Of a DNA stretch of 64,000 nucleotides, positions 26,412-59,062 are shown piece after piece. Below the pieces are notes generated by a model, which saw only the letters and a program-made list of their open reading frames with translations, ran no database searches and had not been told where the DNA came from. This stretch comes from a bacterium. GTDB taxonomy: Bacteria; Patescibacteriota; Dojkabacteria; GCA-016699595; JBAXKR01. The position numbers were made by a program, and so were the translations under genes. Location: contig JBAXRR010000001.1 in assembly GCA_037131125.1 (NCBI GenBank), positions 7,345-71,344 on the forward strand. The letters run 5' to 3'. Numbering within the stretch: position 1 is the stretch's first letter; each line of letters opens with the position of its first letter.

Positions 26412-26476
26412 ATGAATGCTTCTTTAAGTACGAGTTAAATTCTATCATTAGAAAGCCAGATTATCAATCTAAATCA

Positions 26477-27175
26477 CTAAATTTGGGCATTCTCACTTGG
26501 TTTTTCGTCTTTTTTCTCTTTTTTGTCAGAGAGTTTAAGAGGATAAACAATCACAGAATAGTTCTTTCCTTCAAATTTAGGAGTACCTTCTAGCTTTATC
26601 TTTCCCTCAAGTAGCGCTAAAACTTCTCTCATTCTTGCAAATACTATCTCTCTTTGTATTCTACCTCTTACCCTAACTTCAATTTTAACTGGGTGTTTCT
26701 TAGATAAGAACTCCAAGACTCTTTCCACCTTATGGTTTAAGTCCCCTTCTCCAATAACAGGACTAAACCACATACCTTTCATTTCTACGGATTTGCTAGA
26801 GTTATTCTGCTTTTTAGATTGTTCATACTTAAATTTTGACCAATCCATAATCCTACATACTGGAGGCTTAGAGTTAGGGGCAACCTCGATTAAATCAAGG
26901 TCGTAATCCTCTCTTGCCTTAAGAATAGCATCTGCAGTCTTCATCTCTCCAAGAGATTCTCCGTTTGGATCGATTACCATTACAACTTCAGCTTTAATGA
27001 ATTCATTACGGTTAAAGCCGTATGTATTTTCGGTCTTAACGAATGGTTTGTACTGTCTAGGGCCAGTGTATGGGCCTCTGGGTCTAAATGCAAAACCACC
27101 AGGTCTACTAAACTGTGGTCTACCTTGGAAACCTCTAGATGGTCCTGAGTTTGTATTGTTTATATTAGTAAATAT
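26477..27175 (-). CDS. infC: translation initiation factor IF-3 with a non-AUG start and an RG/P-rich N-terminal extension
   Basis: The track ORF (26477-26980) begins at an internal Met. The same frame is open upstream to a stop at 27182-27184 and encodes ...NRNEFIKAEVVMVIDPNGESLGEM...EVAPNSKPPVCRIMDWSKFKYE. This aligns with E. coli [23 protein letters not shown]...EISPNAEPPVCRIMDYGK. There is no ATG in the extension; candidate ATA/ATT starts lie at 27161-27175. The exact 5' end is uncertain. Confidence 0.8.
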   Translation of the reverse strand: MFTNINNTNSGPSRGFQGRPQFSRPGGFAFRPRGPYTGPRQYKPFVKTENTYGFNRNEFIKAEVVMVIDPNGESLGEMKTADAILKAREDYDLDLIEVAPNSKPPVCRIMDWSKFKYEQSKKQNNSSKSVEMKGMWFSPVIGEGDLNHKVERVLEFLSKKHPVKIEVRVRGRIQREIVFARMREVLALLEGKIKLEGTPKFEGKNYSVIVYPLKLSDKKEKKDEKPSENAQI

Positions 27176-27227
27176 AAGAACTTATATATAATTATATCAA
27201 ATATATTAAGATTTTCTTAAATATATT

Positions 27228-30687: not shown

Positions 30688-30763
30688 TGGTGGACGCTAG
30701 AGGATTCGAACCTCTGACCCTACCCACGTCAAGGGTATGCTCTACCAGCTGAGCTAAGCGTCC
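30688..30763 (-). tRNA. tRNA-Val (anticodon GAC), CCA encoded
   Basis: The reverse complement GGACGCTTAGCTCAGCTGGTAGAGCATACCCTTGACGTGGGTAGGGTCAGAGGTTCGAATCCTCTAGCGTCCACCA folds into a cloverleaf. It has a 7-bp acceptor stem, a GCTC/GAGC D-stem and a TACCC/GGGTA anticodon stem with loop TTGACGT. The T-arm is AGAGG-TTCGAAT-CCTCT. Confidence 0.9.
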
Positions 30764-42005: not shown

Positions 42006-45000
42006 TTAGAAATTGAATAGATTTCTAAGGCTATCCAGCAATAAGTTAGTTGCATCAGTTGAAGCTTTCGTAGTTATTGCAACAGTATTGCTAGATATTC
42101 CTGTGTTTTCAGCTTTATCTTTAGATACCGCTCTGAAATGATAGACCTTAGATGGTTCTAGATTTGAAATTACCACCATATGATTAGATGTTAGATTAAA
42201 GTCAGTAATAGATTTGGAAGGATATGTATCTGAATATCCCTCTCCAAATTCTACTGCAGAAGTTGCTGGTTCATCTGTATTCCAAGATACGATTATTTGT
42301 GCTTTTCCAGTACTGCTATTTGCTGTATTCTCTGCAACACTTTCTACAAGCATATCTGTAATTACAGGAGGTCTAGTATCTGATGCTGTAGTGAATTTAA
42401 CTATGTCAGATCTTGCTTCATTTCCAATTCTATCTTGTCCTTTTACAATTAGGTTATACAGTGTATCTGCTTTTAATCCGGATAATGTTATTTTATGTTC
42501 TCCAGATATTAATGCTAAGTTAACAGTATCTCTACTTTGGCTCGCTTTTCCATCTGGATAGTAAGTAACAATTGAACTTACTTCTGTATTAGACTGCCAA
42601 CTAATAATAATACTTGTCTCTGCAGTATTTTTTACTTGTTGTAACTTAACAGAGGAAACTCTTGGTCTTGGAAGTGTTTTGAAATCCAAAACAGTACCTT
42701 CATATTCTGTATTCTCAATGTCAAAAGGATTTACTCTGTAGTAATACTTAGTTCCGTCATCTAGACCGTCTAAGATTACCATGTACTTTGATTCATTATT
42801 ACTTGTTGGTAATTCTTGAAGTCCTCCAAATTGTGTAGATTTTCCATAATATATCTTTACCTTGTTTGCTCCAATTGAAGTGAATTGAATTCGAGCTGAG
42901 TTAGTTCCTACATTTACAACAGTTACATCTTTAACACTAGGAGCAGGTAATGTTTCAAAACTTTGTTCTGTAGATTCACCTAGGTTACCATCTTCATCAG
43001 TCCATCTTGCTTTGTAATAGTAAGTAGTTGAAGGAAGAAGATTTGTTAAATTAGTTACATGTTCAGTTACTTGTTTAGAATTTCCTGTATCGTCTGGGAA
43101 GTATTCACCTTGAGTAAGTCCATATACAATTCTGCTATCTGAATTTCTAGCTGTAACCCAAGAAATTGTTGCTCTTCTTGTCGTAATATTTGAAGTAACT
43201 GGACTAGATACTAATTCTGCAGGTACAGTATATGCTCCTTTTGGTGTAATACTTACAGATAATGAATAACTTGGACTTGCTTTGGATTCATCTGTGTTAT
43301 CCATACTTCCTACTCTGTAATAGTACTTCTTAGAAAGAGGTACTACGTCTACAAATGCAGTTCCATTCGTTTCAATTACTTTAGTCCAAGATGTTCCATT
43401 TTCAGATCTGTCTACTTCATAACTTAAAGCTCCAGTTCCTTTATATATAGGTTCATTCCATGCAAGAGATACACTCCAAAGACTTACACTCTTAATAGAT
43501 GTATCTGCAACTCTTAAATTTATTGCAGGATCTGGTAATGTAGAATTTAATGTAAATGTTTTAGATAGACCATTACTTCCTGAGTAGTTATTAAGATCGT
43601 CTATTGCCACTACATACACCCTATTTTGCCCTTTTACTGCACCAACAAGTTTACCTTCAGGTATTGAAGTACTTGTTGTAGGGATATATATTGTTGAATT
43701 ACTTAATATTGTACTTAAGAGATTTGGTGGAGTGGTGTTTATCATGTAGTAGTAAGATTTTAAGGATCTTCCAACAGATGGGACTGCTACTGGCCAAGAT
43801 AATGAGAAGCTATTAGTTGAGGATACAGATGGTGTAACAGTAATAGAAGATCCATCTGCAAACTTAGGAGCTTCTCCACCATATGAAATACTTGCTGTTC
43901 TACTTATTGTAGATAAATTACCCGCATTATCTAAAGCTCTGAAATATATTGTGTTATTTCCCATTTGAATCCTTGATGAGTCATTAGCAACACTTAAGTA
44001 GTAAGGTTGAGAATCACCAACAGGAATATATTTAACTCCAAGAGAAGCACTTGTATTACTTCCTGTCCAATTAGATTCACTATTAATAGAGTATTCGTAT
44101 CCAAGTAGTTGTGAGTTATTGTCAGAAGCTCCACTATTTCCACTTGTTGGCCAGTTGAAGTAGATATCGTCTACGTTTGAGAATGAATTTTGTGGTGTAG
44201 AGAAAGATGCAACATTTGTTGGTGGAAGATCATCATATTTGAATTCAAATGTTTCGGATGTTGGAAATGTGTTTCCTGCATTATCTAGTGCTTTAATGTT
44301 TAGATAGTATGGATTATTAGATGTTGTTAACCAAGTATTACCTCTTAGGGATAAATCACTAAAATCTATTTCATTAGTTCCTACAATAAACTGACAAGGC
44401 ATACCTATTGTACTTACTGGAGATGTACCCAATATTCCTTTAACAGATGTAGGATCGTCTGCTTGTGTCCCACTTAAAGATAAACAATATCCTTTTATTC
44501 CACTTCCTCCAACATTATCTACACCAAGGTCCCATCTAAAATATGGAGACTGATCATTTGTCCATCCAGTTTCTGAAACACTTCTTCCTTGTGCTGTGGT
44601 TTTCATACTTGTGTTAGCAGCATTAGTTGTTGGAGGAGTGTTATCTTCCACATAGTGAACTGACATCGTACTAATGCTTGGTGACGTAATTTGAGAAGCT
44701 GAATTTAATGTAGCTTTTATTTGAATATATTTTTGAGCTAATGCATTAATATTATAGTTAGGTGAAGTTCCAGAATTTGCAGTGTAGTTTGTCCATGTAT
44801 TTGCATCTGGACTTGTTCTAACATCATAACTTACTGTGTTTCCATTTAGAGATTCAGTTGTTACAAAGTTAGGAGATGTTCCCCACATTGCATTTGAATT
44901 AAGATTAATTACAGGAGATTCCCAGGTGCCTGTTGTTGTATATTTTCTTTGATCTGTTGTACTTTGTGAATAATTTGTAAGACTTTGATTATATAGGTCG

Positions 45001-48000
45001 GAAATCTGTGTTGATGTGAGTGCTTGATTAAATACTCTTAAGTCTGAAAGCATGCGAGTTGTATTACTTGAAATACCTCGAGAGAGAATAATACTTGAAA
45101 CAGTTGGAACAACTGAGTATGAGTTTGAAACTTTAAAAACTCCATCAAGATAAAATGATAATAGAGTTCCATTCCATGTTCCTACCCAGTTATGCCACTT
45201 ACCCTGTCCATATGTTGGCAAGCTTGTAAATGCTCCTGAACCACCAGTTCCTCTAATCTCAATTCCAGCTGAACCACAATCTTGCCCGAAATGAATATAG
45301 TTAGCACCGGAAGTATCTAATATTCCAGCATGAGCACCAGTACAACCAACATAGTAACTTGGGAACCAAATCCAAGCACTAATACTTCCAGAGCTTGCTG
45401 AAATATTTCCAGCTGACGGATAAACTATGTCACCTGCAGTTCTTATGCTTGTTGAGTTATTTTCTGTTCCACTCCATGTGTATCCAGGTCCTAAAGATCC
45501 ATCTACGTAACTTGTTGCGTATGCTTTTGCTTCAAGTTGAACACCATCAACATATATTATTTTATTTGATTTTATCTGAACTCCATAAAGAGCTGCCTGA
45601 TTAACTCCTGTTAAAGATCCAGTTAGCCTCCACCATCCTCCACCCATATCTGTATATGTTGTAGCAATTGTTGAAGTGTTGAAATATAGCTCTGCAATTG
45701 TATTACTTACAATTCCTCCAACATTTCCCGCTGTTCCATCGTAGACATAGCCACTTAATGTATTAGTTCCTGTATTTCCTACGTTAATATTAGTAGTTAC
45801 TTCATCTGTATATGAGCCACCATAATTTAATGCCATACTATTACTTCCAAATTTATAGTATGGCGCTACTGAATTTTGAGTCATAGATGCAGAATAGAAA
45901 CTAATGTATGTCCCATCTATTTGTCTTATTCCTCCCATGTAACTTCCCAAATATGCTGTCGTAAGTGCTGAGCTAAATGATGCTGGAATCGAAGTTGCAG
46001 TTATTCTATCTACTCCATTGACGGATACAATCATATTACCTCCACCTGAATATCGAACACCTATAACATATGTAGCACCTGCTGCAAAATCACCTACTGC
46101 ATTTGCATCATAAGTTGCCGTATTTGATACTCCATTCATTACATATTTCAAAGTTAATACATTTGCAACTGAGAAGTATAAATGTATTTCATTATTTGCA
46201 GTTCCATCTGAGATATATAGGATTCTAGGAGGTACACCATCTGCAAATTTAATTGCATTTGCAGCACTATGTCTTGGTGTAAATTTAAATTTAATACTTC
46301 CACTTGTAGTAGACATGCTGGAGACTGCTTGTGTTAAGGTATCTCCCCCATCTACTCTTAAACCAGTTGATTCTCCACTATTTGCTTGAGATGCTGGAGT
46401 AACTGTGAGTGAAATATTGTCCAACGTAAAATAGTACATATCGTCTGCATAACCATCTGTTGCGGTTAATCTGTGATCGTTAAATCCAGATGATGCATAT
46501 CTGTAAACACCTTTTAATAGACTCCAACTTCCTGTTCCACTAGTTGTTAAAGTTGTACTATTTGAGCCAGAGTTCAATATATATTTGCTACTCCAATATT
46601 TGTTAATTACTCCTGAGTTTGCATAAGCATACATTCCAAAGTCATAGAAATTTCCTGAAGTTGAAGCAGGTCTGGTGGGCATTATACAGTTACTTGAACT
46701 AGCACCAGATATTGCTAACTTAAGTGAATACTGTCCAGAATGAACAATGGAACTTGATAAAGATGTTGAGCCTGCAGGTAAAGTATTTATCCATCCATCC
46801 CATCCTGTTGGTAAAAGAGGATCTCCTGTTCCAGATTCCATGGATGGAGAAGACATGAGGTTAGGAAGTACTTCCACCTGATGCCAATAACATGTACCTG
46901 TTGCTACTGTATTAATTAATTGTACTTGTTCAGATTCAGCTGCAGGAGATGTCCATGTAAATATATATATATCTGGTGATGCTCTTGTACTAGTTTTTGT
47001 TCCTGTTAAGTGAGATATTTCAGTTGTTCCATCTGCTCTTGTTACTTTAACTTGAGGAGTACATGTTCCATCGCTATTTCCCAATGCCCTTAATACATAA
47101 TTTCCACCATTAGTTGCAGTAAATGTATTGTAAATTCCTTGCCCGATTCCTGTAGTTGTATATTTATATCCTCCTGGGTAGATCTTTTCAGATGTTGCTA
47201 ATGATGTAACATTGAATGATGAGGAAAGATTACCCATCGCTGCTGATACCGCAGCGATTTGTGGGGCAGACAATGTTGAGTTATATATTGCAATGGATTG
47301 TATCTTTATATTTGAATATTGTGCTGGACTTCCAGAGATATTTAATGCTGCAATGTAAAGTTCAGTATATCCTGAACCAGTTCCTGCAACAATGGTAGTA
47401 GGCTCAGCAATACCATTTCTGTAAGGAGTTTTTCCAGCAACTGCATATGTTCCTGCAGTAAGTACTGGAGTATTGACACCTGAAAATGAAGTTGTACCAT
47501 GGTAGCTATTCATTCCAGTATTATATGATTGCATTAATAATGAACCTGTTCCCCAAGTTCCAATAATTGTAGTTGATGCTGTTCCTGCGTATCCTGTGTA
47601 TGAAACAATAACTGTTGACGAATCAGTTGGAATAATTCCAGTTTTTAAATAATTAGATGTTCCATTAAATGTCCACCCATTAACGCTATCCCATGTCGGA
47701 GCCACTCCAACACTTGCATTATTTGTTCCAGGATTCGCTAGATTTATGTACGAATTAGCTAGGGAAGATGCGTTATATGGTTGATATGCTGCAACAACAT
47801 TTCCAGCTGATACTCCTCCAGCTAAATACCATGGTGTTTGTGATATAGCAGTAAATCCATCATTTGATGCAGTTCCATTCATCATATATCCACCAGTATT
47901 AGTTGTACTTGTATACAAAAGATTAGAACTATGAGGATGGCTCCATGCATTACCTGTACCACTAGCTAATGTTCCAGTAGAGGAATTAGTTGGAAGTGCA

Positions 48001-50243
48001 AATACAATATCCCATGATCCAGTTATTTGTGAAGGATCTTTGCCAGCACCTGCAGCATATATTTGACTTAACTCATCTCCATTTCCAATATTAATTCCAG
48101 ATGGAGTTGTTGCTTCATAAAGTACTCTTCGATAGATTGTTAAACCTTGAATGATTGCATCTGCTGGGAAAGTATTGTCATTCCTACTTCCTATTGTAAG
48201 TGTGGTTGGAGCGACTTCAGATCCATTCCCAATCATAAAGGTAGTAACATTATCAATTGTTAAACTTGCAGGATTTGATCCATTCAGGTTATTTTTGTTA
48301 TCCCATCTTGCAATAACTAGATGAGTGGATCCAGCTGTCCAAGCACTAACGTCAACATATTGAGAACCTCCTGCATTTTTACTATAGAAATATAGCCTGT
48401 TATCGCTGTATTTTCTGATTCCGGTTGTAGTATTACTCAATATGAAGTGATCAACATTATCATTTCCATTCCATTCTGGAGTTATCCAAAATACAATTGA
48501 CCCTTGTGTTGAATCAAAATTTTGATAGAAATTGCCAGATATTTGCGATCCCTGTGAAGCAGTCAGGGAATCTGGAATTCCTGTTCCATCCATGTTTCCC
48601 TGTACTATTGGAGCAGCAACAAATGGACCTGCTGGTGGAGTTCTTTTAGACATATTGGGGGTATAGGTTGAAGAACCTGCTGAATATGTCATGTAATTAG
48701 TTCCCCAGTTAGTTGCATATGATGCATTTTCAAAAGATGGATTAGTAATAAGGTTTGTTGTTCCCTCTTCTATCATGACTCCACTATGCGATGCATAAGA
48801 TTGATTATTTAATTTTCCTGAATCTGCTGAACTTGCATCTATACCAATAATTCCACCAACATATTTAGCACCAGATATTGTTCCGTTATTTCCATTCCCT
48901 GATGAGTCTATTGCTTTGCCTGTATTTCTAGGATCATCTCCATTTTCGTCAAAATGATAAAGTAATTTTGTATTTGAATCTGGTATTACAACTTTTCCAT
49001 TTCCTGAATTATATAGAGCTAATAATTCTTGAGAACTTAATATTCTGTTATACATTGAAAATTCATCTATCTGTCCATTAAAGAAATTAGCTGTTCCTCC
49101 AATTGTCATGTCATATGGGGAATCATCTTGAATAGTTCCACTTCCAGGATTATTTGATGTAAGTGTTTCTTCTACTCCATTTACAAAAAGATGAGTTACT
49201 CTGTCTGTAGAATCGTTATATGTATATGTAACCATATACCATGTGTTTGGATTCATTGCTGTTGTGCCAATAGAATTTCCCCCTCCATTAATATTTGCCC
49301 TTATCCTGTTAACTGAACCGTTATTATAGATGGTAAAGGAATCATTTCTTTTTACGTAAATTGTAAAACTTGCACCATTTGCGATTGGATTAAATTTAAC
49401 CCATGTATTAACTGTAATTAGATTATGAATATTATTAATTGAAGATTGTTTTCCCACGTTAATGTTGTCGTTAATTCCATCGAATGAAATCGCACTCTTA
49501 GTTGAATACCTTATTGCTCCACTTTCTGTAGATGGTGTTTGACCTGTCTCACATGTTGAAGATCCATTAAATGAACATACCATAGATGCTACTGGTCCAG
49601 ATTGAATTGAATATCCATTAGACCCTTGAGAAGATGCCCCACTATTTCCGTAATAAAGGAAATAGTTTGTTGAATCTGTTGAACTAGATGCTAAGTTTGC
49701 TTGAAGTGGAAATGTTAGTTGAGTAATTTTCGAATCATTACATCCAGTAGAACCATTTTCTTTCTTTATTGTAAGTGCTAGTTCAGTAGTATTTTGGTAA
49801 ACAATTCTAATGTCATTACAATTAGCAAGAACACTTTCAAGAGCTGTTGTATCTATTGAAATAGAAATTGGACTATTAGCGTTTATAGTTGAAGCTGAAG
49901 TATTCTTTATTGTTAATGGTCTTTTGTAATTCCAATTTAAGTTATACCAATTTGAATCTTTTCCAAGAGATATACTTGTTGTTGTGGCAATTACTCCATT
50001 TGCACTTCCTGCTGTGAAATCTGAAGATCCACCTTGTTGAATGTTAAAGTTTGTTTCATTTGCTGCAAGAATTTTCGGAAGTATTCCTATTCCCCCAACA
50101 GTTAATCCAAGTCCAATACAAACAATAGCAAATATATTTAATTGCCATTTAATAATTGTGATTTTTTTTGTGAAGAAATAGAAAGTAAAGGCGTCAAAAC
50201 ACTTCTTGAATACGATTCGTATTTTTTCAAGCAGAGTAAGCAT
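42006..50243 (-). CDS. giant surface protein (2745 aa): N-terminal signal-anchor, LamG and CBM4_9-like lectin domains, C-terminal FN3-like repeat cassette (paralog A)
   Basis: The N-terminal TM is IFAIVCIGLGLTVGGIGILP. The Laminin_G_3 signature is LLYHFDENGDDPRNTGKAIDSSGNGNNGTISGAKYV, with FNGQIDEFSMYNRILSSQELLALYNSGNG just upstream. CBM4_9-like modules start at NPSFENASYATNW. The C-terminal ~600 aa hold repeated ~90-aa FN3/PAP-N-like modules (ISWVTARNSDSRIVYGL...TTYYYKARWTDEDGN). No in-frame stops. Confidence 0.7.
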   Translation of the reverse strand: MLTLLEKIRIVFKKCFDAFTFYFFTKKITIIKWQLNIFAIVCIGLGLTVGGIGILPKILAANETNFNIQQGGSSDFTAGSANGVIATTTSISLGKDSNWYNLNWNYKRPLTIKNTSASTINANSPISISIDTTALESVLANCNDIRIVYQNTTELALTIKKENGSTGCNDSKITQLTFPLQANLASSSTDSTNYFLYYGNSGASSQGSNGYSIQSGPVASMVCSFNGSSTCETGQTPSTESGAIRYSTKSAISFDGINDNINVGKQSSINNIHNLITVNTWVKFNPIANGASFTIYVKRNDSFTIYNNGSVNRIRANINGGGNSIGTTAMNPNTWYMVTYTYNDSTDRVTHLFVNGVEETLTSNNPGSGTIQDDSPYDMTIGGTANFFNGQIDEFSMYNRILSSQELLALYNSGNGKVVIPDSNTKLLYHFDENGDDPRNTGKAIDSSGNGNNGTISGAKYVGGIIGIDASSADSGKLNNQSYASHSGVMIEEGTTNLITNPSFENASYATNWGTNYMTYSAGSSTYTPNMSKRTPPAGPFVAAPIVQGNMDGTGIPDSLTASQGSQISGNFYQNFDSTQGSIVFWITPEWNGNDNVDHFILSNTTTGIRKYSDNRLYFYSKNAGGSQYVDVSAWTAGSTHLVIARWDNKNNLNGSNPASLTIDNVTTFMIGNGSEVAPTTLTIGSRNDNTFPADAIIQGLTIYRRVLYEATTPSGINIGNGDELSQIYAAGAGKDPSQITGSWDIVFALPTNSSTGTLASGTGNAWSHPHSSNLLYTSTTNTGGYMMNGTASNDGFTAISQTPWYLAGGVSAGNVVAAYQPYNASSLANSYINLANPGTNNASVGVAPTWDSVNGWTFNGTSNYLKTGIIPTDSSTVIVSYTGYAGTASTTIIGTWGTGSLLMQSYNTGMNSYHGTTSFSGVNTPVLTAGTYAVAGKTPYRNGIAEPTTIVAGTGSGYTELYIAALNISGSPAQYSNIKIQSIAIYNSTLSAPQIAAVSAAMGNLSSSFNVTSLATSEKIYPGGYKYTTTGIGQGIYNTFTATNGGNYVLRALGNSDGTCTPQVKVTRADGTTEISHLTGTKTSTRASPDIYIFTWTSPAAESEQVQLINTVATGTCYWHQVEVLPNLMSSPSMESGTGDPLLPTGWDGWINTLPAGSTSLSSSIVHSGQYSLKLAISGASSSNCIMPTRPASTSGNFYDFGMYAYANSGVINKYWSSKYILNSGSNSTTLTTSGTGSWSLLKGVYRYASSGFNDHRLTATDGYADDMYYFTLDNISLTVTPASQANSGESTGLRVDGGDTLTQAVSSMSTTSGSIKFKFTPRHSAANAIKFADGVPPRILYISDGTANNEIHLYFSVANVLTLKYVMNGVSNTATYDANAVGDFAAGATYVIGVRYSGGGNMIVSVNGVDRITATSIPASFSSALTTAYLGSYMGGIRQIDGTYISFYSASMTQNSVAPYYKFGSNSMALNYGGSYTDEVTTNINVGNTGTNTLSGYVYDGTAGNVGGIVSNTIAELYFNTSTIATTYTDMGGGWWRLTGSLTGVNQAALYGVQIKSNKIIYVDGVQLEAKAYATSYVDGSLGPGYTWSGTENNSTSIRTAGDIVYPSAGNISASSGSISAWIWFPSYYVGCTGAHAGILDTSGANYIHFGQDCGSAGIEIRGTGGSGAFTSLPTYGQGKWHNWVGTWNGTLLSFYLDGVFKVSNSYSVVPTVSSIILSRGISSNTTRMLSDLRVFNQALTSTQISDLYNQSLTNYSQSTTDQRKYTTTGTWESPVINLNSNAMWGTSPNFVTTESLNGNTVSYDVRTSPDANTWTNYTANSGTSPNYNINALAQKYIQIKATLNSASQITSPSISTMSVHYVEDNTPPTTNAANTSMKTTAQGRSVSETGWTNDQSPYFRWDLGVDNVGGSGIKGYCLSLSGTQADDPTSVKGILGTSPVSTIGMPCQFIVGTNEIDFSDLSLRGNTWLTTSNNPYYLNIKALDNAGNTFPTSETFEFKYDDLPPTNVASFSTPQNSFSNVDDIYFNWPTSGNSGASDNNSQLLGYEYSINSESNWTGSNTSASLGVKYIPVGDSQPYYLSVANDSSRIQMGNNTIYFRALDNAGNLSTISRTASISYGGEAPKFADGSSITVTPSVSSTNSFSLSWPVAVPSVGRSLKSYYYMINTTPPNLLSTILSNSTIYIPTTSTSIPEGKLVGAVKGQNRVYVVAIDDLNNYSGSNGLSKTFTLNSTLPDPAINLRVADTSIKSVSLWSVSLAWNEPIYKGTGALSYEVDRSENGTSWTKVIETNGTAFVDVVPLSKKYYYRVGSMDNTDESKASPSYSLSVSITPKGAYTVPAELVSSPVTSNITTRRATISWVTARNSDSRIVYGLTQGEYFPDDTGNSKQVTEHVTNLTNLLPSTTYYYKARWTDEDGNLGESTEQSFETLPAPSVKDVTVVNVGTNSARIQFTSIGANKVKIYYGKSTQFGGLQELPTSNNESKYMVILDGLDDGTKYYYRVNPFDIENTEYEGTVLDFKTLPRPRVSSVKLQQVKNTAETSIIISWQSNTEVSSIVTYYPDGKASQSRDTVNLALISGEHKITLSGLKADTLYNLIVKGQDRIGNEARSDIVKFTTASDTRPPVITDMLVESVAENTANSSTGKAQIIVSWNTDEPATSAVEFGEGYSDTYPSKSITDFNLTSNHMVVISNLEPSKVYHFRAVSKDKAENTGISSNTVAITTKASTDATNLLLDSLRNLFNF

Positions 50244-50365: not shown

Positions 50366-53300
50366 TTAGAAATTAAATATTCCTCTAATATTTTTGAGAA
50401 TTAAATCCAGTGCATTATCTTGTGTGTTAGCAGTAATTGTTACAATATCCTGACTTTTACTTATGTTAGAAGCTTTATCTTTTGAAACAGCTACAAGGTG
50501 ATAAATCTTTGCAATTTCAAGGTTTGAAATTATTACCACATGGTTAACATTTAAGTTTCCATCTTCTGGAGTTTTGTATTTATATATATCTGTATTACCA
50601 TCTCCATATTCTATTTGAGAAGTAGCTGGTTCATCAGTTTTCCAGCTTACAATTACTTGAGCAGTTTTGTTTCCACCAGTTGCGCTTGTATCCGATGGAT
50701 ATGTCTCTACTAACAAATCTGTAATTACAGGAGGTCTTGTATCTGATGCTGTTGTAAACTTAACAATATCTGATCTTGCTTCGTTTCCTACTTTATCTAG
50801 TCCTCTTACAACTAAGCTATAGCTAACATCGGGCATTAAACCAGTAAGTGTCATTTGGTGAGAACCAACTAGAAGATTTAAGTTAACGCTATCTCTGCTC
50901 TGCTCTATTTTTCCTTCTGGATAGTATGTGATCATTGAAGTAATCTCAGTATTTGAAGTCCAAGATATTAGTATAGATGTTTCTGCTGTATTCTTTATCT
51001 GTTGTAATTTTATGTCACTTACTTTTGGTTTTTGAAGTGTTTTAAGATCCAAAACAGTTCCTTCATATTCAGTATCTTCAATGTCATAAGGATTAATTCT
51101 GTAGTAGTACTTCATTCCATCTTCTAGTCCATCTAATACAACAGTGTATTTAGATTCATTAACACTAGTTGGTAACTCTTGAAGCGAACCAAATTGTGTA
51201 GATTTACCATAATATATTTTAACTTTACTTGCACCTTTTGTAGTGAATTGTATTTGTGCAGAATTTGTATTTACAAACTTAACTACTACATCTTTTATCT
51301 CAGGAGCTGGACTTGTTGTAAATGTTTGCTCGTTAGATTTTCCTGTATTTCCATCTTCATCTGTCCATTTTGCAATGTAGTAATATGTTGTTGAAGGTTG
51401 AAGATTTGTTAGAGGAATAACATGAGAAGTTGTTTGTGTAGATATAGAGGTTTCTGCTTCAAAGTATTTCCCGGATTCTAATCCGTAGGAGATCTTACTA
51501 TCTGAATTTCTAGCTGTTACCCAAGTTACTATTGCTCTCTTCGTTGTTATATCAGAAGTAACAGGATTAGATATTAATTCAGCTGGGGTAGTATATGATC
51601 CCTTTGGAGTAATATTCACACTTAATGCATAACTTGGATTGGCTCTAGATAAGTCTGTATTATCCATACTTCCAACTCTGTAGTAGTACTTCTTTGAAGA
51701 TGGAACAATATCCACGTAAGCAAGTCCACTTGTTTCAGTAACTTTTACCCAATTAATACCATCTTCGGATCTATTTACAACGTATGTTAGTATTCCTGTT
51801 CCTTTATACTCTGGAACTTCCCATGCAAGAGATGCTCTCCATAAGGATGCAGATTTAACAGATGCATCCGATACTGTTAAGTTCTTAACAGGATCTGGAA
51901 TATTTGAATTCAAAGTGAAAGATTTTGAAAGTGAATTACTTCCTGAATAGTTATTAAGATCATCTATTGCAACTACATATATTGTGTTTGTTCCTTTAAT
52001 AACTCCACCTAGAGCAGATGCAGGAATGCTAAGGTTCTCTGTTGGAATATATATACTTGAATTGTTAAGTATTGTATCTAGAGTTGTAGGAGGTGCAGTG
52101 TTTATCATGTAGTAGTATTTAGAAACAGTTCTACCTGAAGAAGCAACTGCTTCTGGCCAACTTACACTAAAGTTATTAATCTCAGATGTCAGAGGGGTTA
52201 TAGTTATACTTGAACCATCTGTAAATTTAGGTGCTTCTCCACCATACGACACACTTGCTGTTCTAGATATACTTGATCTATTACCAGCAACATCTAAAGC
52301 TCTAAAATATATTGTGTTACTTCCCATTTGTATTCTTGATGCATCGTTTGCAATTGTTAAGTAATATGGTTGTGAATGTCCTAATGGAATGTAATTTAAT
52401 CCTAGGACAGAACTTGTATCACTTCCTGTCCAGTTAGATTCTGAGTTAATTGAATACTGGTATCCAAGCAGTTGAGAGTTACTATCTGAAGCGACACCAT
52501 TACCGCTTGCTGGCCAATTGAAATATATGTCGTCAACATTAGCAAAAGAATTTTGTGGTGTTGAAAATGAATTTACATTAGTAGGAGGGATGTCATCATA
52601 CATGAATTCAAAAGTTTCTGAAGTTGGATATGTATTTCCTGTGTTGTCTATTGCTTTGATGTTTAAGTAGTATGGACTATTTGATGCAGATAACCATGTA
52701 TTACCTTTAAGAGCACTATTTGCAAAATCTATCTCGTTAGTTCCAACTATGAACTGACATGTGTAACCAACCGTACTTATAGGTGATGTTCCAAGTAATC
52801 CTTTTTGAGAGGCTGGATCATCTGACAATGTTTGGCTTAAAGATAGACAGTATCCCTTTATTCCAGATCCACCTACATTATCTGCTCCTAAGTCCCATCT
52901 AAAATATGGAGAAGGATCATTCGTCCAGTTAGTTTCAGAAATATCTCTACCAGTAGTAGTACTTTTCATTGCAGTATTCGCAGCGTTAGTAATTGGTGCA
53001 GTTGTATCTTGAACATAATGTATAGATAATCCAGATACAACAGGTGTAGTTACCTGTCCTGGACTATTTAGTGTTGCTCTTATTTGAATATATTTTTGAG
53101 CTTGAGAAGCAATTGCATAGTTTGGATAATTTCCAGTATTAGCAGAATATGAATTCCATGTATTACCATCTGGAGATGTTCTTACTTCATAACTAGTTGT
53201 ATTTCCATTTAGCGTTTCTGTAGTAACAAAGTTAGGAGTTAATCCCCACTGTGCATTTGAATTAAGATTTATGACTGGTGATTCCCATGTACCACTAGTT

Positions 53301-56300
53301 GTATATTTTTGTTGATTAGTACTTGCTTCTGTGTGTAAAACCAAACCCTGATTGTATAAATCGCTTATCTGATTTACTGTTAATGGCTGATTATATATTC
53401 TGAAATCACTTATTACTGAGTTGCTTAGTGAGCCACCATCTCTTCCAACATACATTGAAGTTGGTGTTCCTATTGGGGCAACATAGTTAGCAGTTGCTCC
53501 ACTTTGAACATTGTTGACATATATTTTCAAAGCTCCGTTTGTCCAAGTTGCTACAATGTGTTGCCATTGATTAGTTGAAATTGTAGGTGTTGCCCCATTG
53601 TATCCAGTACTTGCAACTACTCCTCCACTATATGCAAATGAGTAAATTCTTCTTGCAGGACTGCCATTGTCATAAAGAATATTGAAATAGTTTTGCCCAT
53701 CTATGACATATGAGAATATTCTTGAATAGTCATTTTGCCAACTTACGGGTTTAACCCATAAGGAAACACTGCCTGAAGTTTTATCTATATTTCCTACTGT
53801 TGAGTACTGTATATTACTTTCGTTCTTTGTTGTATTTGAATTGTTTGCAGTTCCTGTCCAGTTGTACCCTCCCGAAATAGGGAGTGAGCCATCTGCATAT
53901 GAGGTTGCGAAAGCTTTTCTTTCTAATTGAATACCATCTATATATACCAATTTTGTAGGTTTAACTTGTACTCCAAATGTTTGAGATGTTGTAACTCCAG
54001 TGAATGTTCCTGTAAGTCTCCACCATCCACCTCCCATGTCCGTATATGTTGATGTTAGTGGTTGTGAATTTGCAATAAGTGATAAATCTGTATTTGAAAT
54101 ACTTGCACCAGTTGTATATGCATATGCAGATAATGTATATGAAGTAGCAGTTAGAGTTAGAGGTGTAGTATATGTACTATCTAGTATACTTCCAGAGTTA
54201 TCTAGTTTTGCTGAAGCAGTTCCAAATTTAAAATATGGGCTTGTTGTATTTCTTGTTTTAGTTATTTGATCTGCTCCAAGAACTGTTACTCCATTTGCAC
54301 TAGATCCTGCAACAAGTGTAGGAAGTGTTCCTTGTCCTACTCCCCAAATAGCGATGGTATCATTGTTTAAAAGAGCTGGTGTTGTTGCCGAGGTATACGA
54401 AGCTATCATTGAATCTGAATCTGTATAGTCTCCTACTTTTCCATTTCTAATTACGCTAACTCCACCATTTGCTCCACTTGTTGCTATGTATATATATTTA
54501 TTATCACTACTTGTCCATACACCTTTTGTAATTGCACTTGTACCTGCAAGTTGTTGTGTAAATGAACTTTGTCTTGCAGCATTTCCTTTTGCATACATAT
54601 CTGCAACTTGAGTAGCAGTAACTGCGGTAACACCAATGAAAGGCTCATCTATTGTTCCTTGAAAATTACTTGTACCTGAAGTATTTGCTCCTATTATGAA
54701 TGGTTTGTTGTTGTCATTAGGGGCAGTTAAACTACCTGTTTTGTTTAAAGCACCATCTATGTATATATTTCCAGTAGTTCCGTTAGATGTGAACACATAT
54801 TGATGCCAATTTGTATCAGCAATTGTTGCAACACTAGTTAAAGAATTAATTCCACCATATATCCAGTTTATTGTATTGTCTGCATTAAAGTATGCACTAT
54901 ATCCTGTATTTGCTCCTCCAGATGTTCCTTTTGAAAACAGATTTTCAACAACTCCAGATCTTCCTCTTTTAGCCCAAAGTCCAACACTTAACTCTCCTGA
55001 ATATATTTGAAAATCTGTCTTTCTTACTTCAAAAGTATATGTTGTATCATTGTAGTTAAAACCAGATTCTATACTGGTCCAGTTTCTAACTGCTCCATTT
55101 CTTGTAGAAACAATATGTACTCCATCAATTTGAGTATCTGTTACTTCTTTTACGGATACTTCATCAAAATATGCAGTATCATTAAGATTAGAAGTTCCGG
55201 GTCCTAACCTAATATATGTAGTAGTTGCGTTTGCTACAAAATATCTTGTAAGAAGTGTCCAACTAGTACCACCGCTATATCCATAAGATATATTTTCATT
55301 TCCACCTTGAGAAGTTCCTGAATATATTGAATTGTTCCCGGTTCCGTTTTTTACATACATTGAAATTCTATACATCTTTCCAACTACTGTTGTAATGCTT
55401 TGATAAACATATCCATACGTACCACCTGATCCAATAGTTGTCTGTAATGCATTATTACTAAATCCTCCCGCAACACTTGCTCCTGTTCCTCCTGCAGCTG
55501 CTGTCCATCCTGTTGCATTAGTATCAAAAGTTCCATTTGTAATTAATTCACTCCCAACTGTTTCTCCAGATGAGTTATTTCCCATATATCCCCATGCAGC
55601 TTTTCCAGCACTATCTTTCATGGTGATAATAAATGGTGTGGCACTAGTATCATTTCCTTTGTATGAGGAAAGAATTGGAGAAGATAAAGGTTTAACAGAG
55701 ATATCATCAAATCTACAAGTTTTATTTAAGGATGAATTTGCTAAGGCAATAAAATGTGATCCGGTTAAGGTTGAAGTAAAGTAACCTGAAATATATGTCC
55801 AGCTTGTTGAACTAATTACAGGACTTGTATACATTGAGGAGTAATCCGTTTTTGTTACAGTTAGTGAGCAGATGGTCGAATCTATAGCTTTAATCCACCC
55901 AGTTACTTTATACACAGTTCCATAAGTGAGTGTTATGGCTTGACTTACTATCCAGCTATTTGTTCCTCCATATACTGCATCTATAGCTTTTGTTCCTGTA
56001 CCTCCTGGAGCCTGATCTGCTGCTGAAGTTACAGTACTTCCAGAACTTGCACTCCAAGTACTTGGTGGTGTTCCAGTTTCCATATTTCCATTTATAACTG
56101 TTTCACTTCCAAGTGTTTCCCCTGCTCTAATAAATGCCTGTCCATTTGCATAAGAAGCATTATTTGTTGCTGATCCCCAAGTTGCGCCAGTTTCTGTTAA
56201 ATATGTTTTTTCTTTTAAATAATCCCCTGTTCCATCAAACTTTAATCCACTTCCTCTAACAGCTCTTTCGTAATCAGCACTTTGAATTTCTGCACTTGCT

Positions 56301-59062
56301 CCACCTGATCCCCCCCATGGTCTTGTTGCATTCCCGACCGTTAATTCACTTTGAGTTGTTGTTCCATTGTAATTTGTGGAGGCACCACTTTGAATAACTG
56401 GGTTTATTCCTACCTCTCCATATAGTGGCCACATGCCTCTAATCTCCCCATACATTTCTTCAGTTATGAAATCTTTTCTATAAAACTTTACTGAACTTCT
56501 TGATTCATCCCCCTGTTTTTCTTGTATTACGGCTAAATTACCAGCATTCCCAGCTAAAGTTCTTTCTGATGCGACATATATTGTATTACTTGTCCCATCA
56601 ATTAAAGAAGTTCCTTCGTTTACAAAGAATTTATAGTTACCACTTTGTGAATCATATGGCTTTCCAAGTGATACAGATGTAGATGTTCCATATCCATAGT
56701 ATGGTCCCAGAGCAAAGTTATTAGTTTTGGATTGAATTGAATAAGTTCCATAAATTCCACCATTTGTTGGAGAATTATTAGGTGAAGGTAAGGCTAAGTA
56801 AAGTTCTCCTCTACTTGTTAACCAAACATAGTTAAATCTCATAACAGAAGCTGAATTTATTGCGGTTCCGTCAGTCTCATTAATTATTGTTGCACCTGCA
56901 TCAGTTCCGACTGCAACATATGTTTTCCCAGATATTACATTTGTATGAACTGCATAAACATAATTATTCATTATCTTAATATTTGTTCCTAAGTAGGAAG
57001 AAGAAAGTCCAGCGGCTCTTTGTGCAATTGTTCCTGAATATACCTGAGGAGAAGTACCATCATTCCAGTAATGAAGACCTGCTTCAGTTTTGAAGTTAAC
57101 GGAGAAAAGTCCACTATATGATGAAGATCCATTATCTCTTCCAATATATATTTCTCCATTTAATGCATATACCGAAGATATAATTGAAGCTGAATTTCCT
57201 CCAAGAAAACTTCCACCATTTGTTGAAAATCTCATCCACAACTTATTCTCAACTGCATCTATGACATCTAGATAACTAATACTTCCATTGTAACTAGCTA
57301 CTATGTATGACTTTTCAGGAAACTCTTGCTTTTTACCTCTAGTTGTTGAAAATGCTTCTGTATACCATGATTTAGATTGCGCGTTTGCATTATTTCTCCA
57401 TGCTCCACTATCCGAATCTTTTGTGGTGTCATAATAGAAAACATCTTTTATGTTATTTGCACCGATAAGTGTATTTCCATCTGCATCTGTTTGAGAAGAT
57501 GTGTAATTAAATGTATTTTTTCCATTCCAAGAAGTTGTAATGTCACTTTCAAAAGATGGATTAGGAATATAGTTAGTTGTACCTTCTTCAACAAGAATTC
57601 CTTGATGTGATGCATATGATTGTGATGGAACCTTTCCAATTTCCGTTGATGCAAAATCTATTCCAATAGTTCCACTTACATACTTAGCATTAGATATTGT
57701 TCCATTTAAACCATTTCCCGAGGCATCTAGTGCTTTCCCTGTGTTTCTTGGGTCATCCCCATTCTCATCAAAGTGATAAATAAGTTTTGTATTTGAATCT
57801 GCAATTATTATCTTTCCATTTCCAGAGTTGTATTGACCTAGTATTTCAGAATCTGAAAGTGCTCTATCATACATGACTACTTCATCCATTTGTCCTTTAA
57901 AAGGAACTGCACCGTCTGGCCTTCTTCCTAACATAAACTTAGAACCACTTGTTGGCAAGATATATGCAGTAGATATTGGAGTAGATGGGACAAGTACTCC
58001 ATTAATGTACATGTTTGCAGTTGTTCCACTAAATGTTCCAACTAGATGTATCCATTGATTCGTTTGTGAAAACGCATTATTCGCATATATTCTATATGCA
58101 GTTCCACCTCTAACAACTTGTACCATAAGTCTTCCACCACCAAGTAATATGTGAGCATTATTCTGGTTATCTACGAAATTACTTACAATTGTTTGATTAC
58201 TTATTGCATCTTGGAAATTAATCCACATTCCAACTGTAAAATCTCCTGACATATTAAGATTTGAACTTGATCCAGCATCTACGTAACTTGTTGATCCATT
58301 AAACGATAAAGCGCTCTTTGTTGAATATCTTAATGCTCCTGTTGCTACTGATGGGGTTTGAGCTGTTTCACAAGTTGTTGTTCCATTGAACGAACATACC
58401 ATAGTCGCTTGAGGTCCTCCCGGTATTGAATATCCATTTGTACCTTGAGCAGTTGCTCCTGAATTCCCATAATATAAAGCGTAGTTTGTTGTATCTGAAG
58501 ATCCTGAGGTTATATTTGCTTGAATTGGGAATGTAAGAATAGTTGCTTTTGAATCATTACAACCTGTAGATCCTAAATCTCTTTTAATGGTTATTGGTAA
58601 GTCTGTGTTGGATTGGTATATAACCCTTATGTCATTACAATTTGCAAGGACACTTTCAAGAGAAGAAGTATCTATGGTAATAGATACTGAACTTGTTGTA
58701 TTAAGTGTTGAACCAGAAGTATTTTTTATTGTTAGTTGTTTTTTGTAATTCCAATTCATACTAAACCAATTTGTGGATTTCCCAAGTGTAAGATTAGAAG
58801 CATTAGCAACTGTGTTTACAGATGTTCCAAGAGTGAAATTAGAATCTCCACCTTGAGCTATTGTGAAGTTTGTTTCATTTAGAGCCATAAGCTTAGGAAG
58901 TATTCCAGCTCCTCCAATTAATATACCAAGGCCTAATACAGAAACAGTAAAGACGTTAAGTTGCCACTTAATTAATGTGATTTTCTTAGTAAAGAAGAAT
59001 ATATATATCGAGTTTAAAACTCTTCTTGCTTTAATTCTAATTTTTGTAACTACATCATGCAT
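50366..59062 (-). CDS. giant surface protein (2898 aa), paralog B of the same family
   Basis: The first ~250 aa are about 70% identical to paralog A (FFTKKITLIKWQLNVF, NWNYKKQLTIKNTS, SVLANCNDIRVIYQ). The same LamG signature is present (LIYHFDENGDDPRNTGKALDASGNGLNGTISNAKYV). The central ~1000 aa are divergent. The C-terminal ~1200 aa are highly similar (YTDMGGGWWRLTG, FN3 cassette, ...LDLILKNIRGIFNF end). Confidence 0.7.
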   Translation of the reverse strand: MHDVVTKIRIKARRVLNSIYIFFFTKKITLIKWQLNVFTVSVLGLGILIGGAGILPKLMALNETNFTIAQGGDSNFTLGTSVNTVANASNLTLGKSTNWFSMNWNYKKQLTIKNTSGSTLNTTSSVSITIDTSSLESVLANCNDIRVIYQSNTDLPITIKRDLGSTGCNDSKATILTFPIQANITSGSSDTTNYALYYGNSGATAQGTNGYSIPGGPQATMVCSFNGTTTCETAQTPSVATGALRYSTKSALSFNGSTSYVDAGSSSNLNMSGDFTVGMWINFQDAISNQTIVSNFVDNQNNAHILLGGGRLMVQVVRGGTAYRIYANNAFSQTNQWIHLVGTFSGTTANMYINGVLVPSTPISTAYILPTSGSKFMLGRRPDGAVPFKGQMDEVVMYDRALSDSEILGQYNSGNGKIIIADSNTKLIYHFDENGDDPRNTGKALDASGNGLNGTISNAKYVSGTIGIDFASTEIGKVPSQSYASHQGILVEEGTTNYIPNPSFESDITTSWNGKNTFNYTSSQTDADGNTLIGANNIKDVFYYDTTKDSDSGAWRNNANAQSKSWYTEAFSTTRGKKQEFPEKSYIVASYNGSISYLDVIDAVENKLWMRFSTNGGSFLGGNSASIISSVYALNGEIYIGRDNGSSSYSGLFSVNFKTEAGLHYWNDGTSPQVYSGTIAQRAAGLSSSYLGTNIKIMNNYVYAVHTNVISGKTYVAVGTDAGATIINETDGTAINSASVMRFNYVWLTSRGELYLALPSPNNSPTNGGIYGTYSIQSKTNNFALGPYYGYGTSTSVSLGKPYDSQSGNYKFFVNEGTSLIDGTSNTIYVASERTLAGNAGNLAVIQEKQGDESRSSVKFYRKDFITEEMYGEIRGMWPLYGEVGINPVIQSGASTNYNGTTTQSELTVGNATRPWGGSGGASAEIQSADYERAVRGSGLKFDGTGDYLKEKTYLTETGATWGSATNNASYANGQAFIRAGETLGSETVINGNMETGTPPSTWSASSGSTVTSAADQAPGGTGTKAIDAVYGGTNSWIVSQAITLTYGTVYKVTGWIKAIDSTICSLTVTKTDYSSMYTSPVISSTSWTYISGYFTSTLTGSHFIALANSSLNKTCRFDDISVKPLSSPILSSYKGNDTSATPFIITMKDSAGKAAWGYMGNNSSGETVGSELITNGTFDTNATGWTAAAGGTGASVAGGFSNNALQTTIGSGGTYGYVYQSITTVVGKMYRISMYVKNGTGNNSIYSGTSQGGNENISYGYSGGTSWTLLTRYFVANATTTYIRLGPGTSNLNDTAYFDEVSVKEVTDTQIDGVHIVSTRNGAVRNWTSIESGFNYNDTTYTFEVRKTDFQIYSGELSVGLWAKRGRSGVVENLFSKGTSGGANTGYSAYFNADNTINWIYGGINSLTSVATIADTNWHQYVFTSNGTTGNIYIDGALNKTGSLTAPNDNNKPFIIGANTSGTSNFQGTIDEPFIGVTAVTATQVADMYAKGNAARQSSFTQQLAGTSAITKGVWTSSDNKYIYIATSGANGGVSVIRNGKVGDYTDSDSMIASYTSATTPALLNNDTIAIWGVGQGTLPTLVAGSSANGVTVLGADQITKTRNTTSPYFKFGTASAKLDNSGSILDSTYTTPLTLTATSYTLSAYAYTTGASISNTDLSLIANSQPLTSTYTDMGGGWWRLTGTFTGVTTSQTFGVQVKPTKLVYIDGIQLERKAFATSYADGSLPISGGYNWTGTANNSNTTKNESNIQYSTVGNIDKTSGSVSLWVKPVSWQNDYSRIFSYVIDGQNYFNILYDNGSPARRIYSFAYSGGVVASTGYNGATPTISTNQWQHIVATWTNGALKIYVNNVQSGATANYVAPIGTPTSMYVGRDGGSLSNSVISDFRIYNQPLTVNQISDLYNQGLVLHTEASTNQQKYTTSGTWESPVINLNSNAQWGLTPNFVTTETLNGNTTSYEVRTSPDGNTWNSYSANTGNYPNYAIASQAQKYIQIRATLNSPGQVTTPVVSGLSIHYVQDTTAPITNAANTAMKSTTTGRDISETNWTNDPSPYFRWDLGADNVGGSGIKGYCLSLSQTLSDDPASQKGLLGTSPISTVGYTCQFIVGTNEIDFANSALKGNTWLSASNSPYYLNIKAIDNTGNTYPTSETFEFMYDDIPPTNVNSFSTPQNSFANVDDIYFNWPASGNGVASDSNSQLLGYQYSINSESNWTGSDTSSVLGLNYIPLGHSQPYYLTIANDASRIQMGSNTIYFRALDVAGNRSSISRTASVSYGGEAPKFTDGSSITITPLTSEINNFSVSWPEAVASSGRTVSKYYYMINTAPPTTLDTILNNSSIYIPTENLSIPASALGGVIKGTNTIYVVAIDDLNNYSGSNSLSKSFTLNSNIPDPVKNLTVSDASVKSASLWRASLAWEVPEYKGTGILTYVVNRSEDGINWVKVTETSGLAYVDIVPSSKKYYYRVGSMDNTDLSRANPSYALSVNITPKGSYTTPAELISNPVTSDITTKRAIVTWVTARNSDSKISYGLESGKYFEAETSISTQTTSHVIPLTNLQPSTTYYYIAKWTDEDGNTGKSNEQTFTTSPAPEIKDVVVKFVNTNSAQIQFTTKGASKVKIYYGKSTQFGSLQELPTSVNESKYTVVLDGLEDGMKYYYRINPYDIEDTEYEGTVLDLKTLQKPKVSDIKLQQIKNTAETSILISWTSNTEITSMITYYPEGKIEQSRDSVNLNLLVGSHQMTLTGLMPDVSYSLVVRGLDKVGNEARSDIVKFTTASDTRPPVITDLLVETYPSDTSATGGNKTAQVIVSWKTDEPATSQIEYGDGNTDIYKYKTPEDGNLNVNHVVIISNLEIAKIYHLVAVSKDKASNISKSQDIVTITANTQDNALDLILKNIRGIFNF

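Follow-up and report, generated by a model that had tools for sequence, protein, structure and literature searches.

We analyzed infC, the gene for translation initiation factor IF3, in a 64,000-nucleotide stretch of contig JBAXRR010000001.1 (assembly GCA_037131125.1, positions 7,345 to 71,344), referred to here as the window; all coordinates are window positions. On the minus strand, thrS (29012-27228) is followed by infC, rpmI (26411-26211), rplT (26196-25852), pheS (25847-24798) and pheT. The order thrS-infC-rpmI-rplT(-pheST), which is the standard cluster for infC, was also found in the related loci L003-L007, L015, L020 and L021. Pfam searches placed both IF3 domains in the product, namely the N-terminal domain (PF05198) at 26804-27007 (residues 59-126 of a 234-codon frame, E = 2.2e-25) and the C-terminal domain (PF00707) at 26540-26788 (residues 132-214, E = 1.5e-12). 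TIGR00168, the infC model, agreed with this placement at 126 bits (cut-off 60). The best match in the PDB was an IF3 chain (5me0_Y, E = 2.6e-26), and the AlphaFold2 model contained two alpha/beta IF3 domains, each with a predicted local distance difference test score (pLDDT) of about 90. These matches identify the gene as infC, encoding IF3.

The infC frame does not close at its first ATG (26980-26978, Met68 of the frame) but stays open for 67 further codons (27181-26981) up to an in-frame TAA at 27184-27182, and these codons contain no ATG, GTG or TTG. An initial annotation of the window had reported the 67 open codons and their lack of ATG, which we reproduced together with its quoted translation of the frame, VLIFTNINNTNSGPSRGFQGRPQFSRPGGFAFRPRGPYTGPRQYKPFVKTENTYGFNRNEFIKAEVV. 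The same annotation took the internal Met to be the annotated start. This holds for Prodigal-type pipelines, from which shortened versions of 165-167 amino acids derive (167 in JGI, ENA and Logan), but not for NCBI, where record MEI6462069.1 (P0001; "MAG: translation initiation factor IF-3 [bacterium]") has 232 amino acids, is 100% identical to the window protein and starts at ATA 27175.

Comparison with relatives indicates that the upstream frame is translated and under purifying selection. Locus L009, from the metagenome-assembled genome (MAG) ELA406, encodes a protein 96% identical to that of the window, and L011 carries the same sequence across the start region. Over codons 7-67, the window and L009 differ at 28 nucleotides, and translation is concluded because 26 of these differences are synonymous and only 2 non-synonymous. 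The corresponding proportions of differing sites are 0.64 for synonymous (pS) and 0.014 for non-synonymous (pN) positions, so that constraint on the upstream codons (pN/pS ~0.02) is no weaker than in the remainder of infC (pN/pS ~0.05); in the five alternative frames the substitution pattern is reversed. For the tail encoded by these codons, codon-aligned pN/pS was 0.016 between the window and L009, 0.29 between the window and L019, a third variant, and 0-0.14 within the L001/L010/L012 group. Base composition was as the initial annotation had described it, with a GC content of 0.44 in the extension against 0.33 in the window and 0.09 in the thrS-infC spacer. The third codon position of the extension has the same GC (0.31) as in the remainder of infC, and the excess lies at position 2 (0.59 versus 0.30), reflecting Gly, Pro, Arg, Ser and Thr codons; AGA is used for six of the seven Arg codons. 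This profile is the signature of coding DNA in an AT-rich genome. The coding status argued by the initial annotation is thus upheld by selection, by the GC pattern and by homologous, ATG-started tails in eight related clusters.

If the upstream frame were untranslated, the protein would start at Met68 and the open frame would be a chance occurrence or an RNA leader element. Callers restricted to ATG, GTG and TTG do yield a 167-amino-acid product from this codon (26978-26980). Apart from the substitution pattern and the ATG-initiated tails of relatives, both of which speak against such a start, the IF3 domain begins upstream of Met68, because the Pfam IF3_N match starts at N59 of the frame (profile position 2 of 70), nine codons earlier, in agreement with TIGR00168. 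The initial annotation had made the same point from the conserved start of the N domain. Met68 itself is not conserved, being replaced by N, L or K in relatives. As for an RNA element, the fold of 27186-27100 was no more stable than that of shuffled sequences (z = -0.04), Rfam at gathering thresholds gave no family at this stretch, and the synonymous sites of the tail vary as freely as those elsewhere in infC. A 64-amino-acid open reading frame (ORF) on the plus strand (26997-27191) was likewise rejected as a gene. Its L009 counterpart contains two stop codons and the substitutions are synonymous in the infC frame instead, so that it is spurious, as had been presumed. A start at Met68 is therefore refuted as far as comparative sequence analysis goes, and we consider it extremely improbable.

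Near-cognate codons occur at three places in the upstream frame: ATA at 27175-27173, ATA at 27163-27161 and ATT at 26998-26996, the last inside the IF3 domain. The initial annotation had proposed ATA or ATT near 27161-27175 as initiators; both ATA codons are indeed there, but no in-frame ATT was found in that interval. Taken together, the comparisons indicate that translation begins at an ATA upstream of the first ATG. Three genus-level variants were available for this region, represented by the window (matched by L015-L018 across the start region), L009/L011 and L019. The sequence ATA AAC AAT at codon 7 after the TAA (27163-27161 in the window) is identical in all three. By contrast, the 18 nt between the TAA and this codon are only 61% identical, the thrS-infC spacer being 58% identical, and pN in these 18 nt is close to pS (0.37 versus 0.46), as in non-coding DNA. 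Because ATA AAC AAT is conserved where the preceding 18 nt have diverged like spacer, we favor ATA 27163 as the probable start, with moderate confidence. The resulting coding sequence (26477-27163) comprises 228 amino acids plus the stop codon, and Pfam, TIGR00168 and synteny are consistent with it.

A less likely start is the more upstream ATA (27175-27173, third codon following the TAA), which would give the 232-amino-acid protein of the NCBI record (M-F-T-N-I-N-N...). It is the first near-cognate codon of the open frame, L009 has ATT at the same codon, and ATA TTT ACT AAT resembles the ATG TTT ACT AAC start of the L001/L010 group. However, the MFTN likeness fits ATA(27163)-AAC-AAT-ACA-AAC-TCA-GGA equally well, L019 has AAC at that codon, and the five codons that separate the ATAs show the divergence of non-coding DNA. 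Upstream ATH codons also shift position, lying at codon 3 in the window, at codons 2, 3 and 6 in L009 and at codon 4 in L019, and, with 91% A+T in the spacer, chance alone should place an in-frame ATH at about one codon in five. The predicted leader would moreover be just ~9 nt long. The start chosen by NCBI suggests a longest-ORF rule, because the chosen codon differs between the two genomes, being codon 3 in the window and codon 2 (ATT, 233 amino acids) in L009. The NCBI start is probably four codons too long, and the annotation should probably be corrected to 27163, rather than 27175 or 26980. For annotation in general, callers that accept only ATG, GTG and TTG cut 61-65 residues off this IF3. 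An artefact of opposite sign was observed in many database IF3 entries (P0025, P0030, P0061, P0063, P0027, P0028, P0090-P0093 and others), in which the caller ran to the nearest ATG, GTG or TTG past a probable Ile-codon start (...INKEFRVNEQI, ...INNRDFRGFDRNRD). This over-extension is systematic for infC, and such N-termini were excluded from our counts of extensions.

From ATA 27163, the N-terminal extension spans 51 codons (27008-27160; NNTNSGPSRGFQGRPQFSRPGGFAFRPRGPYTGPRQYKPFVKTENTYGFNR) and is supported by pN/pS, AlphaFold2 and composition. It includes eight Gly, seven Pro, seven Arg, six Phe and three Tyr, with a single acidic residue (E) and a net charge of +7. In an AlphaFold2 model built on a 25-sequence alignment, the first ~50 residues of the protein had a pLDDT of 43-60 and residues 1-55 lacked DSSP secondary structure; pLDDT climbed to ~80 at a junction motif, KPFVKTENTYGF (27014-27049), which links the tail to the N domain. 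The tail is thus ~50 residues long, strongly basic and predicted to be intrinsically disordered. Searched alone against Pfam with E up to 10, it matched no family. Solved bacterial IF3s in the PDB align from about residue 50 onwards, with 3-15 residues preceding; Pfam and PDB alignments cover the core alone, which places the tail outside canonical IF3, in line with the initial annotation. An R/G/P-rich, acid-poor stretch of 40 residues occurs nowhere else in the six frames of the window. The initial annotation had likened the extension to a disordered RGG-type tail. The disorder is supported by the model, but the RGG type is not, given that 54 tail residues contain no RGG or GGR and three RG/GR dipeptides, and that RG is absent from the tails of P0003, P0004 and P0005. 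The window tail instead carries three [RK]Px(0-2)[FY] units where 0.5 would be expected (P about 0.005), and these units were enriched at P<0.01 in four of six tails tested and at P about 0.06 in the other two. "Basic, proline- and aromatic-rich" accordingly describes the tail better. At the other end of the protein lies a Lys/Glu-rich C-terminal tail of ~20 residues (LKLSDKKEKKDEKPSENAQI, 26480-26539), which is genus-specific; it is predicted to be disordered (pLDDT <50, residues 216-232) and is absent from P0002, P0003, P0005 and other aligned clade members.

A homologue search covering 5.8 billion protein clusters found the identical 232-amino-acid NCBI protein and its shortened versions. 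Searching with a profile delineated a tight clade of nine clusters at 90% identity (P0001-P0005, P0140, P0141, P0142 and P0413), with the score falling sharply from 282 bits in the clade to 205 bits for the tail-less IF3 of WS6 bacterium OLB20. When the profile of this clade was run against collections of genome and metagenome contigs, only 2 and 4 loci were obtained. All nine clusters bear an N-terminal extension of 35-62 residues, varied in length and sequence, with 15-20% R+K, 16-24% aromatic residues, 10-14% P, ~30% N/Q/S/T and ~2% D+E. Each tail has two to three [RK]-P-x(0-2)-[FY] units (~0.5 expected from shuffles) and ends in a conserved junction leading into the N domain; its consensus in the nine-sequence alignment is [RK]P[FY]V[KR]xEN[TD][YF]G, with P44, E49, N50 and G53 invariant. 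The start codon is less widely shared. In the other eight of the nine clusters infC starts with ATG, indicating that the non-AUG start is specific to the window's genus within the clade. Of the two features for which the initial annotation had suggested a comparison with relatives, the tail is thus conserved throughout the clade, and the non-AUG start is, within the clade, confined to the three genus variants. These three represent the diversity found within the genus, and the ATA is kept in all of them although their synonymous sites differ by 50-70%. The nearest named threonyl-tRNA synthetase, at 65-66% identity, belongs to WS6/Dojkabacteria. One related contig was labelled Saccharibacteria by its submitter, and one clade member lies on a 0.76-Mb contig; the placement is approximate. 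The window organism appears to be an AT-rich, small-genome bacterium near Dojkabacteria/WS6, which fits the candidate phyla radiation (CPR).

Two further observations concern IF3 genes outside this clade. In L021 (7911-8000; WS6-type, tail-less, 28% GC), infC is called from an internal TTG (164 amino acids), and its frame is open for 30 codons further upstream, with ATT and ATA as the sole candidate starts and no ATG or GTG at the N-terminus. As judged from the reading frame, this more distant relative provides a further infC with a non-AUG start. Separately, several distant IF3s have putatively coding N-terminal tails with RP[FY] units (P0148, P0273, P0170, P0237, P0171 and P0151), among them a ~190-residue tail with five RPY units in P0148 and one with three RPPY units in P0273. 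These RPY, RPPY and RPF tails may be convergent.

Upstream of infC, a promoter-like element (27191-27220, minus strand) consists of TTAAGA, an 18-nt spacer and the extended -10 sequence TGaTATAAT (TG at 27199-27198, TATAAT at 27196-27191). Between the window and L009, a run of 20 nt (TTTGATATAATTATATATAA) is unchanged, as are the extended -10 and the 12 nt after it, whereas the rest of the spacer has diverged, and TGnTATAAT precedes infC in five related lineages (L001/L010, L002, L003-5, L006-8 and L019). With transcription starting ~7 nt after the -10, the leader would measure ~21 nt to ATA 27163 or ~9 nt to ATA 27175. A second candidate promoter (27200-27171; TTGATA, 18 nt, TATATT), which would make ATA 27163 leaderless, was set aside, its -10 being unconserved (TATTTC in L009). 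Downstream, the 65-nt infC-rpmI spacer contains a promoter-like site with an extended -10 (26439-26467, minus strand; TTGATA, 17 nt, TAGAAT with TG), suggesting possible transcription of rpmI-rplT independently of infC. No Shine-Dalgarno motif was found upstream of infC. Such motifs precede 3 of the 45 window genes, none of 28 genes in the tail-bearing related loci, and 2 of 30 genes in the tail-less WS6-type relatives (L020, 2/16; L021, 0/14), which points to Shine-Dalgarno-independent initiation throughout the lineage. The leaders are A/U-rich across the window and L001-L008, L015, L019, L020 and L021.

We propose the following model, in which an ATA-started infC with a conserved basic tail, its own promoter, feedback control and RNA contacts by the tail are combined, and which we hold to be moderately probable as a whole. 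The infC mRNA would be transcribed from its own extended -10 promoter ~27 nt upstream and would carry a short, A/U-rich leader that lacks a Shine-Dalgarno sequence. The near-cognate ATA start would subject IF3 synthesis to the start-codon discrimination of IF3 itself, resulting in negative feedback as for E. coli infC. Autoregulation of infC through a non-canonical start is known from E. coli and Streptomyces (PMC5472188, PMC5499595), and we infer by analogy that it operates through the ATA in the window organism. In solved complexes, the N domain of IF3 is located on the 30S platform close to uS11, or at the elbow of the initiator tRNA (PMC8266586). A tail joined to this domain might come within reach of 16S rRNA, of the mRNA leader or exit region, or of the tRNA. 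The Arg/Lys and Phe/Tyr residues of the repeated [RK]-P-x-[FY] units would supply RNA contacts and tune the binding and release of IF3 on the 30S subunit. That the tail adds RNA contacts at the 30S platform is our best guess, made from composition alone.

Several points weigh against this model. In vitro, E. coli IF3 cut AUA-initiated translation by 20-25%, compared with >60% for AUU, and AUA and AUG gave similar translation in an E. coli cell-free system, where the repression of AUA by IF3 was weak (PMC5499595). Start-codon feedback would not be a general feature of the clade, because ATG is the infC start in eight of the nine related clusters. For the preference of 27163 over 27175, three sequences and 18 nucleotides were available, and L019 also differs within the first dozen residues that follow ATA 27163. 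Nor does the absence of Shine-Dalgarno motifs track the tail; a link between the two was considered and dropped, as the tail-less L020 and L021 lack the motifs too and no specific correlation emerged. The weak repression of AUA, the prevalence of ATG in the clade and the 33% GC of the genome would suit a scenario in which the ATA is a tolerated G-to-A decay of an ancestral ATG that lowers IF3 output and provides no feedback. We regard this as a possible but rather unlikely account. Selection appears preferable to accident, because the ATA has been retained in three variants with 50-70% synonymous-site difference and non-AUG infC starts recur elsewhere, in the tail-less L021 and widely in bacteria.

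For the tail, the main alternative to RNA contacts is a role as an adaptor to a changed ribosome or to a partner protein, to which we give a low probability. In mitochondria, the terminal extensions of IF3 serve to match it to an altered ribosome or to reduce its large-subunit affinity (PMC6321546), and the very strong conservation of tail residues within the genus (pN/pS 0.016), together with the invariant junction motif, would suggest a specific docking surface. The tail nevertheless has no sequence similarity to the mitochondrial extensions, and its acid-poor composition with Arg plus aromatic residues is more typical of nucleic-acid binding.

The proposed feedback resembles that of the autoregulated infC genes of E. 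coli, Streptomyces and other bacteria, which start with AUU or AUC, in that the gene and its thrS-infC-rpmI-rplT context are the same and the start belongs to the same class of near-cognate AUH codons, pairing with initiator tRNA at two of three positions, against which IF3 discriminates. It differs in having AUA, a short predicted leader and no Shine-Dalgarno sequence, and in that the closest relatives of the window organism use AUG, the feedback being predicted by analogy. With the IF3s of mitochondria (human MTIF3, yeast Aim23p) and chloroplasts, the window protein shares a two-domain core and lineage-specific terminal extensions of tens of residues, which in organelles are believed to suit IF3 to a changed translation apparatus (PMC6321546). 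Mitochondrial PDB chains (6rw4_8, 7po0_8 and 6neq_z) nonetheless align over the core alone, from query residue 43-47 (E ~2e-6), and their extensions share no sequence similarity with the window tail. The latter is bacterial, basic and aromatic, and is defined by [RK]P[FY] units and an ENTYGF junction. Compared with RGG/RG tails, it is likewise disordered, Arg/Gly-rich and acid-poor with interspersed aromatic residues, but lacks RGG, has three RG/GR and contains Pro about as often as Gly; the tails of P0004 and P0005 are almost Gly-free yet retain the [RK]P[FY] units. Short PRP/RPY-type units also occur in proline-rich antimicrobial peptides of insects (drosocin, oncocin and the like), where their Arg and Tyr residues stack on rRNA bases; those are free peptides that bind the exit tunnel of the 50S subunit. 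The window tail is tethered to a 30S-binding factor, and we take this likeness to be one of composition alone. In the open-access literature on IF3 N-terminal extensions or tails and on candidate phyla initiation factors, we found no bacterial tail like that of the window, an absence of evidence. The novelty is modest, comprising a lineage-specific bacterial tail that has been little described; the non-AUG infC start is textbook knowledge and was already annotated here, and organellar IF3 extensions are known.

Elsewhere in the window, two adjacent giant ORFs lie on the minus strand at 42006-50243 and 50366-59062, encoding 2745 and 2898 amino acids, with Laminin_G_3 (concanavalin A-like lectin), fn3 and purple-acid-phosphatase-N-like domains. 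They probably encode paralogous surface proteins of a kind common in small-genome episymbiotic bacteria. A single tRNA gene (30691-30763, minus strand) was the sole Rfam match at gathering thresholds in the 64 kb.

Collectively, these findings describe a strongly conserved tail, predicted to be disordered, that is attached to a central factor of translation initiation in a lineage where initiation takes place almost wholly without Shine-Dalgarno sequences. The occurrence of ATG and ATA starts in close lineages constitutes a natural experiment on whether the start-codon feedback of IF3 is dispensable. Similar tails on unrelated IF3s hint at convergence, and, more speculatively, [RK]-P-[FY] tails might have arisen repeatedly on the IF3s of small-genome uncultured bacteria, forming an unrecognized ribosome- or mRNA-binding module that alters 30S start-site selection in lineages lacking Shine-Dalgarno sequences, although we consider this unlikely. 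Should mRNA or rRNA on the 30S platform prove to be contacted by the tail, the latter would represent a bacterial counterpart of the organellar IF3 extensions and an entry point for studying how candidate-phyla bacteria initiate independently of Shine-Dalgarno sequences.

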